DNA of 64,000 nt, from the sequence record OP870145.1; one strand, 5' to 3'. Below the pieces are notes generated by a model, which saw only the letters and a list, made by a program, of their open reading frames with translations, did not search any database and was not told where the DNA came from. The stretch is from Escherichia phage vB_Eco_F26. Shown here one piece after another: positions 16,118 through 21,076 of the stretch; positions within the stretch are counted from its first letter, which is position 1; every line of letters starts with the position of its first letter. The position numbers and the translations under genes were made by a program.

Positions 16118-17533
16118 TTATGGATAGGTATAGATGATACCAGTTTCTAAAGCAGTTTTATGAATGATGTATCCATTACGCGATTCTTGGACATCAACTT
16201 CTGGATAGTCTTTAATCATCTTCTGAAGAGTGTAACGATGCAGGTAGTATTTACTATCTGGGTCGTCAGTTTTCCAATCTTTACCTTCTTCGGTCATTTT
16301 TTGGATTTCATCCATAACCCACCAACCGCACCAGATATAAGCTGAAGTACGATGTGGAAGAGGATGAACATAAGGTAGTTCACCTTCTGGTTCAATTGGA
16401 GTCCGTTCAGCAATAACAACTTCAGCTGTTGAACTAATTGTCTTTGAAGTGTAATTATCTTTAGTTAATACTGCTTCAACTTTAATTGTATGAGTACCCG
16501 CTGAGGAGGTATCAATACTATAAGTATTAGTAGAATTACTTTCTGCTACGTTGTCTTTCTTCCAAGAGTACACAATATTAGTATCACCAGGAGCACCAGT
16601 AACAGATGCTGTTAAAGTTGCAGTTCCACCAACAGTAGTATTAACTGATGGCGGAGATAAAGAAATGGTGGCACTATTAAATGTCGCATTATTAGTTACT
16701 ACTGTTGCTTCTGCTGAAATTTCTTTTGTAACATAATTTGTTGCAGAAACAGATGCGGTGCATTTAAGAGTTTTACTTCCGACTTCGGTCGGAGTGAATT
16801 TATACGTAGCAGAAGTTGCATCCGGAATATTACTGTCATCCATTGACCATTGGAATGTTATAGTAGCACCTGAAGGTGCACTAGAGACATTTGCAGTTAA
16901 AGTAATAGGAACACCAAAGACTGTAGTCGGAGACTCGGGTGTAATTTTTAGCGTCGAAGAATTAGCCTTTTTATTTACAGTCAAAGAAACCGCTGATGAT
17001 TCTACTGTTTTATCAACGTAATCAGTTGCAGTCACTGTGACAGAGCAAGTTATAGACTTAGTTCCTTCAGTTGTTGGTGTATATTCAAAGGTTGATTGCT
17101 TTTGACCGTCAACATCGACCCCGTCAACTTTCCATGTATAATCAATAGCAGCACCAATAGGTTGATTGCTTACATTAGCAGTGAATGTTGTTGCTGTTCC
17201 AATTTCTACTGCCGCAGGAGAAGCCGGAGTAACAGTGATAGTGGAATTATTTTCTTTCTTATTAACAGTGATAGTTGTTGATGCTTCAGCTATTTCCGGA
17301 TCTCCTGCGGAAAGTGTATTAGTTGCAACCACTTTAATTTTTTTTGTTCCTGCTGGAGAAGCAAGAGTATAATCCATTGTAGCAGCCGTAGAGCCCTGTG
17401 TTATATCATCTACAGTCCAGACGTATGTAATAGTACCGTCTGGGGTTTCACCTGCAGGTGTAGCAGTGAATGTTTGTGAACCTCCAATAACCCCTGTAGG
17501 AGTTAGAGGAGATAACGTGACAGTGAATGCCAT
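16118..17533 (-). CDS. hoc: highly immunogenic outer capsid protein Hoc with four Ig-like repeats
   Basis: 471 aa; four ~90-aa Thr/Ser-rich Ig-like modules then a distinct C-terminal domain (YVHPLP...WCGWWVMDE); position between 24.3 and inh. Confidence 0.8.
   Translation of the reverse strand: MAFTVTLSPLTPTGVIGGSQTFTATPAGETPDGTITYVWTVDDITQGSTAATMDYTLASPAGTKKIKVVATNTLSAGDPEIAEASTTITVNKKENNSTITVTPASPAAVEIGTATTFTANVSNQPIGAAIDYTWKVDGVDVDGQKQSTFEYTPTTEGTKSITCSVTVTATDYVDKTVESSAVSLTVNKKANSSTLKITPESPTTVFGVPITLTANVSSAPSGATITFQWSMDDSNIPDATSATYKFTPTEVGSKTLKCTASVSATNYVTKEISAEATVVTNNATFNSATISLSPPSVNTTVGGTATLTASVTGAPGDTNIVYSWKKDNVAESNSTNTYSIDTSSAGTHTIKVEAVLTKDNYTSKTISSTAEVVIAERTPIEPEGELPYVHPLPHRTSAYIWCGWWVMDEIQKMTEEGKDWKTDDPDSKYYLHRYTLQKMIKDYPEVDVQESRNGYIIHKTALETGIIYTYP
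16400..17500 (-). repeat. tandem Ig-like domain-coding repeats within hoc (four units, approximate extent)
   Basis: Recurring ~90-aa protein modules (...TFTA.../...YTWKVDG.../...ITFQWSMDD.../...IVYSWKKDN...). Confidence 0.6.
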
Positions 17534-17542
17534 AAGTTATCC

Positions 17543-18223
17543 TTATTTTAATGTTATGAAAGAAGAATTACGAGTTTCGCGAATTAGAACTGATCCATCG
17601 CGATTAATATAATAAATTAAGCTAAATAATGTTTGGTGTGCTGACGCATGTTCAAAACTAGTTGGGTGAGATTTCCAATCCGGAGTTTCAGCAATCCATT
17701 GATAAATCCACCAAGGAACAGTGCAGAATCCTGGATTTTTTCCAATCAGTTGAAGATTCGGACTAAAGTTTTCCGGAAGAGTAAATACAGACGGCTTTTC
17801 AGATTCAATAATCTCAGCTACAGCTTGTTCAAACTTTTCTTCAACAAACGGAGTGTCTTCAATCAAAACTGAGGTATTTTCAGGAATTTTATCCGTTTCT
17901 ACTACTTCAATTTTAATGTCAGATTTAACCGGAGAATCAATCAAAAGTGCTGCTTCTGGATTGACTTCTTCATCGTCATATTTTAATCCCTCTGCGGCAT
18001 CAGCAGCATCAATTAAGTCTTTAATAGATAACCCATCAGTCTCCGGCATAGGTTCACTAGCGAGCTTCTGGAGGGCTTCTTCAATATCAACAACGATATT
18101 ATCAAAAGATTTATTCTTTTTGACTTTTATACCAAACTGTTCAGCATATTCAGCTAATTTAGCTTTAGCTTCTTTATTATCATCAAGAGCCTTCAGCTCT
18201 GCAATATAATCTTTATCTATCAT
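17543..18223 (-). CDS. inh: inhibitor of prohead protease Inh
   Basis: 226 aa as T4 Inh; synteny. Confidence 0.7.
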   Translation of the reverse strand: MIDKDYIAELKALDDNKEAKAKLAEYAEQFGIKVKKNKSFDNIVVDIEEALQKLASEPMPETDGLSIKDLIDAADAAEGLKYDDEEVNPEAALLIDSPVKSDIKIEVVETDKIPENTSVLIEDTPFVEEKFEQAVAEIIESEKPSVFTLPENFSPNLQLIGKNPGFCTVPWWIYQWIAETPDWKSHPTSFEHASAHQTLFSLIYYINRDGSVLIRETRNSSFITLK

Positions 18224-18236
18224 AATATTTCCTCAG

Positions 18237-18244
18237 TATAAATA
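18237..18244 (+). promoter_or_regulatory. late promoter (TATAAATA) for uvsW
   Basis: Exact TATAAATA ~30 nt upstream of uvsW ATG. Confidence 0.65.
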
Positions 18245-18273
18245 TAGATATATTTATTACATGGTATTTAGAC

Positions 18274-19785
18274 ATGACTGACATTAAAGTACATTTTTAT
18301 GATTTTAGTCACGTGAGAATTGATTGTGAAGAAAGCACATTTCATGAACTCCGTGATTTCTTTAGCTTTGAAGCTGATGGGTATCGTTTTAACCCTCGCT
18401 TCAGATATGGCAACTGGGATGGACGAATCCGTCTTTTAGATTATAATCGTCTTCTTCCATTCGGTTTAGTCGGGCAAATTAAAAAGTTCTGTGATAACTT
18501 TGGCTATAAAGCCTGGATTGACCCACAGATTAACGAAAAAGAAGAATTATCAAGAAAAGATTTTGATGAATGGCTTTCTAAATTAGAAATCTATTCAGGA
18601 AATAAAAGAATTGAACCACACTGGTATCAAAAAGATGCAGTGTTCGAAGGATTAGTTAATCGTCGTAGAATTCTTAATCTTCCAACATCTGCAGGTAAAT
18701 CGTTAATTCAAGCTCTGCTTGCTCGGTATTATTTGGAAAATTATGAAGGTAAAATTCTTATCATTGTTCCAACAACTGCTCTAACAACTCAGATGGCTGA
18801 TGACTTCGTTGACTATCGTTTATTCAGTCATGCAATGATAAAGAAAATTGGTGGCGGAGCATCAAAAGATGATAAATATAAAAATGATGCACCAGTCGTT
18901 GTTGGTACATGGCAAACTGTAGTAAAACAACCGAAAGAATGGTTCTCACAGTTTGGAATGATGATGAATGATGAATGCCATCTTGCTACAGGAAAAAGTA
19001 TTTCATCTATCATATCAGGTTTAAATAACTGCATGTTTAAATTTGGTCTATCAGGTTCATTACGTGACGGCAAAGCCAATATCATGCAGTATGTTGGAAT
19101 GTTTGGTGAAATATTTAAGCCAGTAACGACCTCTAAATTAATGGAAGATGGACAAGTAACTGAGTTAAAAATTAATAGTATTTTTCTTCGCTATCCCGAT
19201 GAGTTCACTACTAAATTAAAGGGAAAAACTTACCAAGAAGAAATAAAAATTATTACTGGGCTCAGTAAAAGAAATAAATGGATCGCTAAATTAGCTATTA
19301 AGCTTGCACAAAAAGATGAAAACGCTTTTGTCATGTTTAAACATGTATCGCATGGTAAAGCTATTTTCGATTTAATTAAAAATGAATACGATAAAGTTTA
19401 TTACGTATCAGGGGAAGTTGATACCGAAACCCGCAACGTAATGAAAACCTTAGCTGAAAATGGTAAAGGAATAATTATAGTAGCTAGTTATGGTGTATTT
19501 TCTACTGGTATTTCAGTTAAAAATCTGCATCATGTTGTTTTAGCGCACGGCGTTAAATCAAAAATCATTGTATTACAAACAATCGGTCGTGTATTACGTA
19601 AGCATGGTTCTAAGACAATCGCAACTGTCTGGGACCTCATAGATGACGCGGGCGTGGTTTCTAAATCAAAAACATCTTCTAAAAAATACTCGCATTTAAA
19701 CTATCTTTTAAAACATGGACTTGATCGTATTCAGCGTTATGCTGATGAAAAGTTTAATTATGTGATGAAAGAGGTTAAACTTTGA
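18274..19785 (+). CDS. uvsW: UvsW DNA/RNA helicase (SF2)
   Basis: 503 aa; helicase motifs PTSAGKS and DECH; late promoter upstream. Confidence 0.85.
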   Translation: MTDIKVHFYDFSHVRIDCEESTFHELRDFFSFEADGYRFNPRFRYGNWDGRIRLLDYNRLLPFGLVGQIKKFCDNFGYKAWIDPQINEKEELSRKDFDEWLSKLEIYSGNKRIEPHWYQKDAVFEGLVNRRRILNLPTSAGKSLIQALLARYYLENYEGKILIIVPTTALTTQMADDFVDYRLFSHAMIKKIGGGASKDDKYKNDAPVVVGTWQTVVKQPKEWFSQFGMMMNDECHLATGKSISSIISGLNNCMFKFGLSGSLRDGKANIMQYVGMFGEIFKPVTTSKLMEDGQVTELKINSIFLRYPDEFTTKLKGKTYQEEIKIITGLSKRNKWIAKLAIKLAQKDENAFVMFKHVSHGKAIFDLIKNEYDKVYYVSGEVDTETRNVMKTLAENGKGIIIVASYGVFSTGISVKNLHHVVLAHGVKSKIIVLQTIGRVLRKHGSKTIATVWDLIDDAGVVSKSKTSSKKYSHLNYLLKHGLDRIQRYADEKFNYVMKEVKL

Positions 19786-20474
19786 ATTATAAATTAATAT
19801 ATGATAATTTAATTAATAGAGCCCAGAATCGGGCTCGCCTTAATGGATACACTGAAACACATCATATAATTCCTAGATGTATGGGTGGTACAAATGATAA
19901 GTGTAATTTAGTAGAACTAACGGCTGAAGAACATTTTATAGCCCATAAACTTTTAGCTAAAATTCATCCAAATCATTACGGTATAATTAAAGCCGTTATA
20001 TGTATGGGAATGAACTCAAAGACTCATGAAAGACACGTTAATAAATCTTACGCGTGGGAACGTCGTAAAATGGCAGAACTTCAATCCGGCGAAGGTAATC
20101 CATTTTACGGAAAACACCATACGGAAGAACATAAACAATATATGTCAAAACTCATGAAAAGTCGTCCAATTACATGGGGAAATAAAATTAGTAAAACTAA
20201 AAGAATGAACCCAACGAAATGGACTGAAGAAGCTAAAAGATTACATTCAATCAATCAATCGGGTAAAAATAACGGCATGTATGGAAGGAAACATTCCGCT
20301 AAATCTATTCAGAAAATTAAAGATAACATGCCAGATAATTCAGGAGCTAATAACCCAGCTGCTAAACCTATAGAAGTAAATGGTGTTAAATATAAATGTA
20401 TGAAAGATGCTTCTAAAGCTACTGGATTATCAATGTACAAACTAAGAATACTTAGAAAAACAGTTAATTTATAA
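19782..20474 (+). CDS. free-standing HNH homing endonuclease (Mob-like)
   Basis: TTG start overlapping uvsW stop (TTGA) with AGAGG SD; motif YTETHHIIPRCMGG..N..EHFIAH; paralog of ORFs 371..1183 and 47929..48639. Confidence 0.8.
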   Translation: MNYKLIYDNLINRAQNRARLNGYTETHHIIPRCMGGTNDKCNLVELTAEEHFIAHKLLAKIHPNHYGIIKAVICMGMNSKTHERHVNKSYAWERRKMAELQSGEGNPFYGKHHTEEHKQYMSKLMKSRPITWGNKISKTKRMNPTKWTEEAKRLHSINQSGKNNGMYGRKHSAKSIQKIKDNMPDNSGANNPAAKPIEVNGVKYKCMKDASKATGLSMYKLRILRKTVNL

Positions 20475-20499
20475 GGGCTTCGGCCCTTTGGAGAAAAAG

Positions 20500-20730
20500 A
20501 TGTTACTAGGATTTAAACAATTTCTTTATGAAGCTTCTATTGATGAATTTATGGGTAAAATTGCCTCTTGTCAAACATTAGAAGGTTTAGAAGAACTTGA
20601 AGCTTATTATAAGAAAAGAGTCAAAGAAACTGAATTAAAAGATACTGATGACATCTCTGTAAGAGATGCTTTGGCAGGAAAAAGAGCTGAATTAGAAGAT
20701 TCAGACGATGAAGTAGAAGAAAGCTTTTAA
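20500..20730 (+). CDS. uvsW.1: UvsW.1
   Basis: 76 aa from ATG 20500 with GGAG SD; acidic C-terminus; T4 UvsW.1 length. Confidence 0.7.
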   Translation: MLLGFKQFLYEASIDEFMGKIASCQTLEGLEELEAYYKKRVKETELKDTDDISVRDALAGKRAELEDSDDEVEESF

Positions 20731-20760
20731 ATTAAAAAAGGCCCAACCAAAAAGGAAGGG
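20730..20760. terminator. hairpin between convergent uvsW.1 and uvsY.-2
   Basis: GGCCC...13-nt loop...GGGCC with flanking A-runs. Confidence 0.4.
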
Positions 20761-20785
20761 CCAAAACTATAGACTAAAGGTCACA

Positions 20786-20953
20786 CTATAGCAAAAGTTG
20801 TGTTTCATTTAATTGTTCTTCCGAACTTTCTGAAACTGGTAGTTCTTTAATGTAATTATAGCAAGGCCCAGGATGTACAGGACCTTTGTCTGTTTCAACA
20901 ACCAATGCAGAATCGATTGGAGTTTTACAGACAACACAAATCTTATCTGACAT
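20786..20953 (-). CDS. small Cys-rich protein (uvsY.-2-like)
   Basis: CxxC...C motif; start placed at internal Met MSDKICVVCK. Confidence 0.45.
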   Translation of the reverse strand: MSDKICVVCKTPIDSALVVETDKGPVHPGPCYNYIKELPVSESSEEQLNETQLLL

Positions 20954-21076
20954 GATTGTCTCCTTTTGAATATAGTAATATTTATAAACCCATTTTAATC
21001 CGCATTTCTTGTACACGGATTAAGCAGGCTTCCATCTCTGCTAATAGTCGAAATACTTCTTTATAATCTGTCATAT

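Follow-up and report, generated by a model that had tools for sequence, protein, structure and literature searches.

The open reading frame that separates uvsW from uvsW.1 in Escherichia phage vB_Eco_F26 is very probably a free-standing HNH homing endonuclease gene of the MobE family, located in the 3' end of uvsW. We analyzed a window of 64,000 nucleotides (sequence record OP870145.1), and the features around this gene are collected in Table 1. The frame is bounded by the uvsW stop codon upstream and by the Shine-Dalgarno sequence and ATG of uvsW.1 downstream, and it does not lie in an intron. The gene is not new, being an uncharacterized member of a known MobE-type kind. It has already been annotated in T6, PST, ACG-C40 and other phages, in T6 and PST as a homing endonuclease. 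Our literature search found no paper that describes or experimentally studies the uvsW-linked HNH gene. In the UFV-AREG1 paper, two flanking helicase coding sequences are given without comment. Several database records label the frame as hypothetical, shorten it to begin at an ATG, or present it as an intron endonuclease that splits "uvsW-A/uvsW-B"; the present analysis corrects these annotations.

Table 1. Features of the uvsW to uvsW.1 region of vB_Eco_F26 (positions in the window; residues refer to the HNH frame)
Feature	Position	Strand	Details
TATAAATA box	18237..18244	+	30 nt 5' of uvsW ATG; exact consensus match
uvsW helicase gene	18274..19785	+	503 aa; Pfam UvsW_N and helicase domains
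Insert-linked haplotype of the uvsW 3' end	19647..19781	+	divergence from T4
Recoded uvsW tail from insert	19768..19785	+	AAA GAG GTT AAA CTT TGA
MobE-like HNH homing endonuclease frame	19782..20474	+	230 aa; between uvsW and uvsW.1
Internal GC-rich hairpin	19819..19836	+	GAGCCC-AGAATC-GGGCTC; begins 38 nt into the HNH frame
HNH motif	19848-19946	+	residues ~23-55
NUMOD3 repeats		+	residues ~94-122 and 157-185
I-TevI-like helix-turn-helix tail		+	residues ~193-226
Resident uvsW tail and stop, right-hand insert edge	20457..20474	+	AAA ACA GTT AAT TTA TAA = KTVNL*
GC hairpin, C(UUCG)G type	20475..20486	+	GGGC-TTCG-GCCC; fold energy -9.3 kcal/mol
uvsW.1 Shine-Dalgarno sequence	20490-93	+	GGAG; uvsW.1 context same with or without insertion
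uvsW.1	20500-20730	+	ATG at 20500; 76 aa; Pfam UvsW-1, E 1.5e-30
Bidirectional terminator hairpin	20740..20763	.	uvsW.1/uvsY.-2 interval; fold z-score -2.97

A preliminary description of this DNA had placed the HNH frame between uvsW and uvsW.1 and had stated that these two genes adjoin in T4. All three genes are present at the lengths given there, and both the resequenced T4 junction and insert-free relatives show uvsW and uvsW.1 as two adjacent frames, T4 being without the insert. The HNH frame has the same orientation as uvsW. The box upstream of uvsW reads TATAAATA, which is the exact T4 late-promoter consensus, and it is the presumed promoter of a uvsW-HNH-uvsW.1 transcript. No exact TATAAATA match was found within or just before the HNH frame, and sigma-70-like sites for this frame do not exceed those of shuffled sequence. 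The hairpin between uvsW.1 and uvsY.-2 closes the transcription unit; a conserved bidirectional terminator 3' of uvsW.1 has been described (PMC1524935).

The record labels suggest another reading, namely that uvsW is one gene interrupted by an intervening element, a group I intron or the like, with an endonuclease gene of its own. Labels of this kind ("group I intron endonuclease" or "uvsW-A / uvsW-B") are found for G28, G2540-3, UPEC01 and PST, an old T4 record has a single uvsW of 587 aa, and the frame has a weak match to TIGR01453 (E 6e-7, below the cut-off). This match is limited, however, to shared DNA-binding modules, and two frames are present already in the resequenced T4 and in every relative without the insert, with uvsW ending in its own stop codon and uvsW.1 starting with its own Shine-Dalgarno sequence and ATG. 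We rejected the group I intron because an Rfam scan of 19400-20900 (E up to 1) matched no intron model, and no other family was matched in this interval. An intervening element thus seems extremely improbable. The idea that the separation of uvsW and uvsW.1 is an insertion scar was also rejected, the two being separate throughout the T4-like genomes, whether or not the insert is present.

The assignment to the HNH homing endonucleases, made in the preliminary description, is borne out by NUMOD3 repeats (Pfam, E 7.4e-14), a match to the HNH domain of McrA, similarity to T4 MobE (41% identity, E 2e-33, BLASTP) and a patchy distribution. The frame also matches PHROG 655, "homing endonuclease", with an E-value of 3e-60. 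The Pfam HNH model alone stays below its cut-off (16.3 bits vs 21.4), and it is the family profile that aligns residues 20-55 with McrA HNH (6ghc, E 4.8e-4), the same profile also matching group II intron maturase and Cas8-HNH domains. A beta-beta-alpha unit is predicted at residues 25-61 (AF2 model, pLDDT 88), and among 53 homologues H28, N42, H51 and H55 are invariant, while H27 is at least 90% conserved. For the DNA-binding part, the profile matches the I-TevI domain 1i3j (E 4.9e-10), and a PDB search with the single protein sequence returned the I-TevI domain only (E 0.006). Homologues are found at E-values down to 6e-150, and dN/dS lies at 0.03-0.07, with 28 of the 34 variable sites in eight Tequatrovirus copies at third codon positions, which places the frame far beyond chance. 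Judged by its sequence, the gene is real and well formed, and it is probably active.

A TAA at 19776-78 precedes the open HNH frame, and the TTG at 19782-84 is accordingly the first codon at which it could start. This codon overlaps the TGA of uvsW (19783-85, in TTTGA) and follows an AGAGG (19770-74), both as previously noted; the spacing from the AGAGG is 7 nt. The further claim that it is the only in-frame start needs qualification, because an in-frame ATG exists at codon 34. Starting there would remove the His-His pair, and the TTG is therefore the sole start only among those that retain the catalytic motif. If translation began at this ATG or later, the product would be a DNA-binding protein lacking part of the HNH motif. 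ATG is more common as a start codon, and internal starts have been chosen in some annotations (UPEC01, 199 aa; UFV-AREG1, 146 aa), but the 33 residues that would be lost, the HH of the motif among them, stay conserved in 12 lineages despite DNA divergence. Six of these lineages have an ATG at the exact position of the vB_Eco_F26 TTG, and a Shine-Dalgarno sequence lies 7 nt 5' of this TTG. We consider an internal start very unlikely.

The comparison of diverged lineages speaks for the TTG start in other respects as well. The start overlaps the uvsW stop in 12/12 lineages (TTG in five, ATG in six, GTG in one), the N-terminal MNY is conserved among them, and the TTG itself is kept in all eight Tequatrovirus copies examined. 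Start codon and ribosome binding site appear paired: TTG starts have a strong Shine-Dalgarno sequence in 5/5 lineages, and ATG or GTG starts a weak one in 6/7. A possible RNA stem (19749-59 with 19773-83) that would mask part of the Shine-Dalgarno sequence and the TTG was discarded, since it is no better than in shuffled sequence (z -1.24).

The preliminary description had the insertion exactly at the uvsW/uvsW.1 junction. When the edges are set by comparison with the resequenced T4 junction, the insert is seen to span 19768-20456 (689 bp), and the actual insertion point lies within the uvsW coding sequence, five codons before the stop. The insert brings a recoded uvsW tail, so that UvsW ends in KEVKL* in vB_Eco_F26 vs KTVNL* in T4, and this recoded tail contains both the Shine-Dalgarno AGAGG and the TTG start of the HNH gene. 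At its right end, the insert enters the original uvsW tail and stop in frame. These nucleotides match the last 18 nt of T4 uvsW exactly and now encode the C-terminus of the HNH protein and its stop, which leaves the native uvsW.1 junction untouched. In Gaprivervirus, comparison of UPEC01 with the insert-free VR7 reveals a perfect 17-bp duplication of the uvsW tail, and the PSD2002 and SRR28032203 lineages have the same AAAGAGGT...TTTGA arrangement. The GC hairpin that had been reported between the HNH stop and the uvsW.1 Shine-Dalgarno sequence is indeed there, and can be extended to AAGGGC/GCCCTT (20473-88). As it is unchanged in T4, T2 and all aligned insert-free Tequatroviruses, this CUUCGG hairpin belongs to the native T4 spacer and lies outside the insert; compared with shuffles its fold is unremarkable (z -0.95).

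A second hairpin lies within the HNH frame itself. We compared it across lineages by a sliding-window energy scan, indels shifting the register of the alignment. It is present at +32 to +38 in 12/12 lineages, is built from at least five different stem sequences, and ranks first in stability among all 28-nt windows of the frame in 11 lineages and second in the twelfth. T4 mobE has a hairpin at the same position, a weak terminator that has been shown to terminate transcription (PMC2790892). By position, the internal hairpin of the HNH frame is homologous to the mobE weak terminator. Unlike in T4 mobE, no U tract follows it in vB_Eco_F26, so that a terminator function is uncertain.

We see an even chance that the mobile unit is more than a bare endonuclease gene, namely a "seamless" cassette. 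In such a cassette, the recoded tail would complete UvsW, create a ribosome binding site and provide the overlapping start, the resident tail, stop and downstream junction would be borrowed, and a conserved attenuator hairpin would be included, a design retained by at least 12 T4-like lineages.

The gene occurs in 48 of about 501 Tequatrovirus records (about 10%), including T6 and Yersinia phage PST, while T4 and T2 are without it, and the Tequatrovirus copies are 96.7-99.1% identical in nucleotide sequence. It is also present in 13 of about 150 Jiaodavirus records and, in Gaprivervirus, in UPEC01 and not in VR7. The junction of vB_KpnM_GF is damaged. The insert position is identical in the three genera, giving a presence/absence polymorphism at a single site, and diverged homologues (54-70% aa identity) are found at the uvsW/uvsW.1 boundary in 12/12 lineages checked. 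The neighbouring backgrounds differ, with and without segE, and the vB_Eco_F26 cassette resides on a segE-less background closest to that of insert-free phages.

Upstream of the insert, uvsW carries a distinct haplotype. The last 141 nt of the gene are 72% identical to T4 and the preceding 300 nt 98%, a sharp divergence as expected of a homing cassette. Between insert-plus and insert-minus genomes, identity falls to 83% and 79.5% in the 200 bp upstream and is about 98% elsewhere, and the drop in identity to insert-free genomes (from 98% to 72-80%) is abrupt and confined to the upstream side. Eight silent differences at 19698-19764 are fixed between the two groups, and an insert-free recombinant, LH2, limits the tightly linked part to 19698-19781. 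Jiaodavirus has the same one-sided upstream drop. In Gaprivervirus, insert-plus and insert-minus flanks are about 98% identical, with no linked divergence; linked polymorphisms are therefore not universal and cannot be the sole route to immunity. The haplotype is likely a co-converted donor flank, a self-immunity region, or both. It could also reflect one old recombination event that was inherited clonally, rather than ongoing homing. No sampled lineage exceeds 73% identity to the divergent Tequatrovirus haplotype as a candidate donor.

From the family and the population pattern we infer endonuclease activity and homing. Together with translational coupling, also inferred, they suggest a model. 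The HNH gene, apparently promoterless, would be read together with uvsW from the late promoter at 18237, and ribosomes that end uvsW and restart at the overlapping UUG would translate it at a low level. The internal hairpin, like its homologue in mobE, may reduce expression further. In mixed infection with an insert-free relative, the protein would bind DNA through its NUMOD3 and helix-turn-helix modules, and the HNH domain would nick or cut near the uvsW end of that relative, with the cleavage site expected within or near GATGAAAAATTTAAYTACGTAATGAAAAC or in the tail/spacer region. Repair from the insert-bearing genome would then copy the gene together with about 85-135 bp of upstream flank. 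The carrier genome would be protected because its site is split by the insert, because of the linked silent changes, or both.

It is conceivable, though unlikely, that the gene is instead a stranded or domesticated relic that is transmitted only vertically, or is kept for competitor exclusion or a general nuclease role, and does not home into uvsW. The 48 Tequatrovirus copies are similar enough to be one clade, T4 has a defunct endonuclease in I-TevIII, and MobE activity could not be demonstrated in vitro. These points have to be set against the strong purifying selection and intactness of all copies, the occupation of the same site in 12 diverged lineages, the presence of the cassette on both segE+ and segE- backgrounds, and the sharp one-sided flank divergence, which is typical of co-conversion.

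Among known systems, T4 mobE offers close parallels that support a homing gene. MobE is a precedent for a promoterless, co-transcribed gene with immunity through target polymorphisms. The two proteins share the N-terminus MNYxKIY and have nearly superimposable HNH blocks, and the genes have in common a start that overlaps the upstream stop (TAATG in mobE), a GC hairpin about 30 nt into the frame, the apparent lack of an own promoter and a patchy occurrence among T-even phages. They differ in location, mobE lying between nrdA and nrdB and the HNH gene at the uvsW 3' end, presumably with a target other than nrdB, and in the start codon (ATG in mobE, TTG here). Moreover, the C-terminal DNA-binding part diverges from MobE after about residue 170, and only the vB_Eco_F26 frame ends in borrowed host-gene codons.

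Other homing genes share individual traits. The HNH gene for T4 MobA reportedly split a topoisomerase gene and travels with an adjacent protective sequence, in work attributed to Bonocora et al. (2011, PNAS). As at gene 60, a Mob-type HNH gene is found inside a host coding region and the mobile unit includes altered host sequence, but the uvsW cassette has no translational bypass element, and uvsW is not split into functional halves, since uvsW and uvsW.1 are two genes even where the insert is absent. In Aeromonas phage Aeh1, mobE is said to be inserted in nrdA, leaving genes in pieces. There, too, a MobE-like gene sits inside a conserved gene of DNA metabolism, and the frames on either side remain functional; UvsW, by contrast, needs no reassembly of fragments, as only five terminal codons were displaced, and these were replaced. 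The C-terminal 90 residues match the NUMOD3 helix and helix-turn-helix domain of I-TevI (1i3j, Foldseek probability 1.0), whereas the catalytic domain is HNH and not GIY-YIG, and the gene is not intron-encoded. T4 SegE, a GIY-YIG enzyme encoded between inh and uvsW, targets uvsW, and its gene is a second homing endonuclease gene with uvsW as landing zone. SegE and the HNH protein belong to unrelated families, and their genes occupy opposite ends of uvsW. The vB_Eco_F26 window has no segE; the two genes occur together in T6, PST and five further phages with the insert.

The uvsW-linked gene leaves knowledge of how homing elements work unchanged. What it adds is an uncharacterized and apparently active member of the classic T-even homing endonuclease set, and since it is present in T6 and absent from T4 and T2, it could be tested by standard crosses. 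If the "seamless" cassette reading holds, progeny of T6 crossed with T2 or T4 should over-inherit the uvsW 3' region in a manner that depends on the endonuclease, a cleavage or immunity site should be marked by the silent changes at 19698-19764, and the pairing of TTG with strong and ATG or GTG with weak Shine-Dalgarno sequences would imply tuned low expression. The arrangement shows a way for a selfish gene to invade two closely coupled genes and leave both undisturbed.

The HNH ORF of the window, which is a segment of a T4-like (Tequatrovirus) genome, is a genuine, well-formed homing endonuclease gene of the MobE family. Its product matches NUMOD3 in Pfam (E 7.4e-14), with weak matches to HNH and I-TevI DNA-binding domains, and 'homing endonuclease' in PHROGs (E 3e-60). 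A profile of 53 homologues aligns the C-terminal third with the I-TevI DNA-binding domain 1i3j (E 4.9e-10) and residues 20-55 with the McrA HNH motif (E 4.8e-4). H28, N42, H51 and H55 are invariant among the 53 homologues, an AlphaFold model places a beta-beta-alpha unit at residues 25-61 (pLDDT 88), and T4 MobE is the nearest characterised relative (41% identity, E 2e-33). The gene is probably active. ORF coordinates and Pfam bear out the sizes and the order of the three genes in the preliminary description.

Features of the uvsW/uvsW.1 region in the window
Feature	Position	Product	Remark
uvsW	18274-19785	503 aa	Pfam-confirmed
HNH ORF	19782-20474	230 aa	Between uvsW and uvsW.1
GC-rich hairpin	19819-36		Begins 38 nt into the HNH ORF
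Hairpin GGGC-TTCG-GCCC	20475-86		Followed by GGAG, then the uvsW.1 ATG
uvsW.1	20500-20730	76 aa	Pfam-confirmed

The old T4 reference contains a sequencing error within the uvsW region, and the insert edges were defined by aligning the window with the resequenced T4 junction (...AATTACGTAATGAAAACAGTTAATTTATAAGGGCTTCGGCCCTTTGGAGAAAAAGATG). The inserted block spans 19768-20456 (689 bp). Its left end brings a replacement uvsW tail, AAA GAG GTT AAA CTT TGA (KEVKL*), that holds both the AGAGG and the TTG of the HNH ORF, while the original uvsW tail, KTVNL*, forms the last 18 nt of that ORF (AAAACAGTTAATTTATAA, 20457-74). With a replacement tail at the left and the original tail at the right, the HNH gene thus lies five codons inside uvsW: its placement between uvsW and uvsW.1 stands, but not the earlier claim that it sits exactly at the junction. 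The GC hairpin noticed between the HNH stop and the uvsW.1 SD is present and, like the SD itself, belongs to the native T4 spacer. A degenerate direct repeat of 18 nt (11/18 positions identical) brackets the HNH gene. Gaprivervirus shows the same insertion design, its 17-bp repeat being perfect; in the insert-bearing UPEC01, UvsW and the endonuclease share the C-terminus IKQVEI*, and the insert-free VR7 has a simple uvsW/uvsW.1 junction. In Jiaodavirus Roth77 the HNH gene is flanked by two ATGA overlaps, and in the insert-free Jiaodavirus JD18 the uvsW TGA directly overlaps the uvsW.1 ATG. We reject an intron or split gene, given the lack of an Rfam match in 19400-20900 and the separate uvsW and uvsW.1 of all T4-like phages.

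The reading frame of the HNH ORF opens behind a TAA at 19776-78, making TTG at 19782 the earliest possible start. As the preliminary description had it, this TTG overlaps the uvsW TGA (TTTGA) and is preceded by AGAGG (19770-74, 7 nt before it). The next canonical in-frame start, ATG at codon 34, would leave the catalytic motif without its His-His; the internal-ATG starts of some annotations are rejected because they would delete conserved catalytic residues. Twelve diverged subfamily members (54-70% amino acid identity) were compared on their own contigs. In all twelve lineages the HNH gene lies directly 3' of uvsW and its start, at the homologous position each time, overlaps the uvsW stop codon; five lineages begin with TTG, six with ATG and one with GTG, and the N-terminus MNY is kept; uvsW.1 comes next in the ten whose contig runs past the HNH stop. 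TTG is retained in 8/8 Tequatrovirus copies examined. Comparative sequence support for TTG as the predicted start is strong, and the start/stop overlap is compatible with termination-reinitiation coupling to uvsW. SDs of the GAGG/GGTGG type (AGAGG, GGTGG, GTGG) accompany 5/5 TTG starts versus 1/7 ATG or GTG starts. Such pairing of TTG with a strong purine-rich SD is suggestive, although the lineages are not independent, and may, with shared ancestry uncorrected, be a compensation that holds expression low but non-zero.

In 11 of the 12 lineages no 28-nt window anywhere in the ORF is more stable than a hairpin at +32 to +38, which ranks second in the remaining lineage. Its stems have at least five different sequences, and the peptide encoded there is poorly conserved. 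T4 mobE has a homologous hairpin at the same position, a weak intrinsic terminator that reduces mobE expression (PMC2790892). Unlike this experimentally defined terminator, the hairpin of the HNH ORF has no following U tract; it may cause termination, pausing or RNA stabilisation. Nearby, an exact late-promoter box, TATAAATA, occurs only at 18237-44, upstream of uvsW; sigma-70 promoter-like sites showed no excess over shuffles, and the transcription unit ends at a conserved bidirectional terminator 3' of uvsW.1. The HNH ORF looks promoterless and reliant on its host gene's transcript, as are seven free-standing endonuclease genes of T4, mobE included.

Among eight Tequatrovirus copies of the HNH gene, dN/dS is 0.03-0.07 and 28 of the 34 variable sites are at third codon positions. 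This selection, the intact ORF and the recurrence at the same site make a dead relic unlikely. When eight insert-plus loci were aligned with eight insert-minus loci, identity between the groups was ~98% across uvsW and ~99% downstream, but dropped in both 100-bp bins just upstream of the insert, to 83% in one and 79.5% in the other. Between the window and T4, identity is 72% for the final 141 nt of uvsW and 98% for the 300 nt before. Within 19698-19764, eight third-position differences between insert-plus and insert-minus loci are fixed, all of them silent. Jiaodavirus has a likewise one-sided drop (95% to 81%); in Gaprivervirus a one-sided drop was looked for and not seen. Homing accompanied by flank co-conversion, target-site immunity or both would be expected to give such a pattern, and is documented for MobE. 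The insert-free Escherichia phage LH2 is a recombinant, of insert type to about 19693 and of T4 type from 19698, which narrows the tight linkage to the final ~85 bp of uvsW. In the part matching window 19647-19781, LH2 has the insert-linked amino-acid patch GVVSKSKTSSKKYS. Klebsiella phage vB_KpnM_GF (insert-free, partial genome) has an upstream haplotype of insert type and, exactly at the presumed target at the end of uvsW, five clustered changes, GATGAATAATTTAATACGTAATGAGAAACGCTGAATCTATGA; among them are a deletion of 1 nt and a premature stop (TAA), which leaves UvsW ~11 aa shorter. Loss of the endonuclease, or escape from it, could have left this cluster as a footprint, or it may be just a sequencing error in the partial assembly.

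The GIY-YIG endonuclease gene segE lies at inh/uvsW in T4, T6, PST, PYPS2T, G28, ACG-C40 and EC121. It is missing from that interval in T2, PhiZZ6 and sb4, and from the window, where the interval (18224-18273) separates uvsW from inh (17543-18223, minus strand). In the inh/uvsW 5' region the window is nearest to insert-free phages, e.g. Paracelsus and DalCa, whereas the other seven insert-plus loci aligned have a segE-type upstream layout (segE annotated in 6/7); the cassette is therefore found on more than one background. With segE at one end and the HNH gene at the other, uvsW can bear homing endonuclease genes on both sides; vB_Eco_F26 carries only the 3' one in the window. Over the 5'-most 200 bp of uvsW identity is also lowered, to 0.86-0.93, as expected for segE-linked polymorphism. 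Beyond inh, a Hoc-like head decoration gene (16118-17533, minus strand) encodes 471 aa, compared with 376 aa for T4 hoc (1131-bp CDS, NC_000866), or about one extra Ig-like repeat; sb4 hoc is comparably long. Between uvsY.-2 and uvsY.-1, a poorly conserved, indel-rich stretch at 20970-21070 has a between-group identity of 0.74, differs in length in AR1 and LH2 and has no relation to the HNH insert.

The same gene, at 96.7-99.1% nucleotide identity, is found in 48 of ~501 matching phage records, including T6, the Yersinia phages PST and PYPS2T, and ACG-C40, and has no counterpart in T4, T2, RB7, AR1 and most other phages. Its labels vary (homing endonuclease, MobE/mobD, hypothetical, and in some public annotations group I intron endonuclease). 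In PST the neighbours on either side are named uvsW-A and uvsW-B, as though one gene were split, and the UPEC01 (1791-2486) and UFV-AREG1 records shorten the gene via an internal ATG to 199 aa and 146 aa. A literature search found neither description of nor experiment on the gene. It is already known, with annotation, in many genomes, T6 included; its insertion site is not discussed in the literature searched. What the present work adds is the anatomy of the insertion in exact detail (a recoded tail, a borrowed one and a native hairpin), the linked uvsW haplotype, a start position strongly supported by comparison across lineages, and the conserved mobE-type hairpin.
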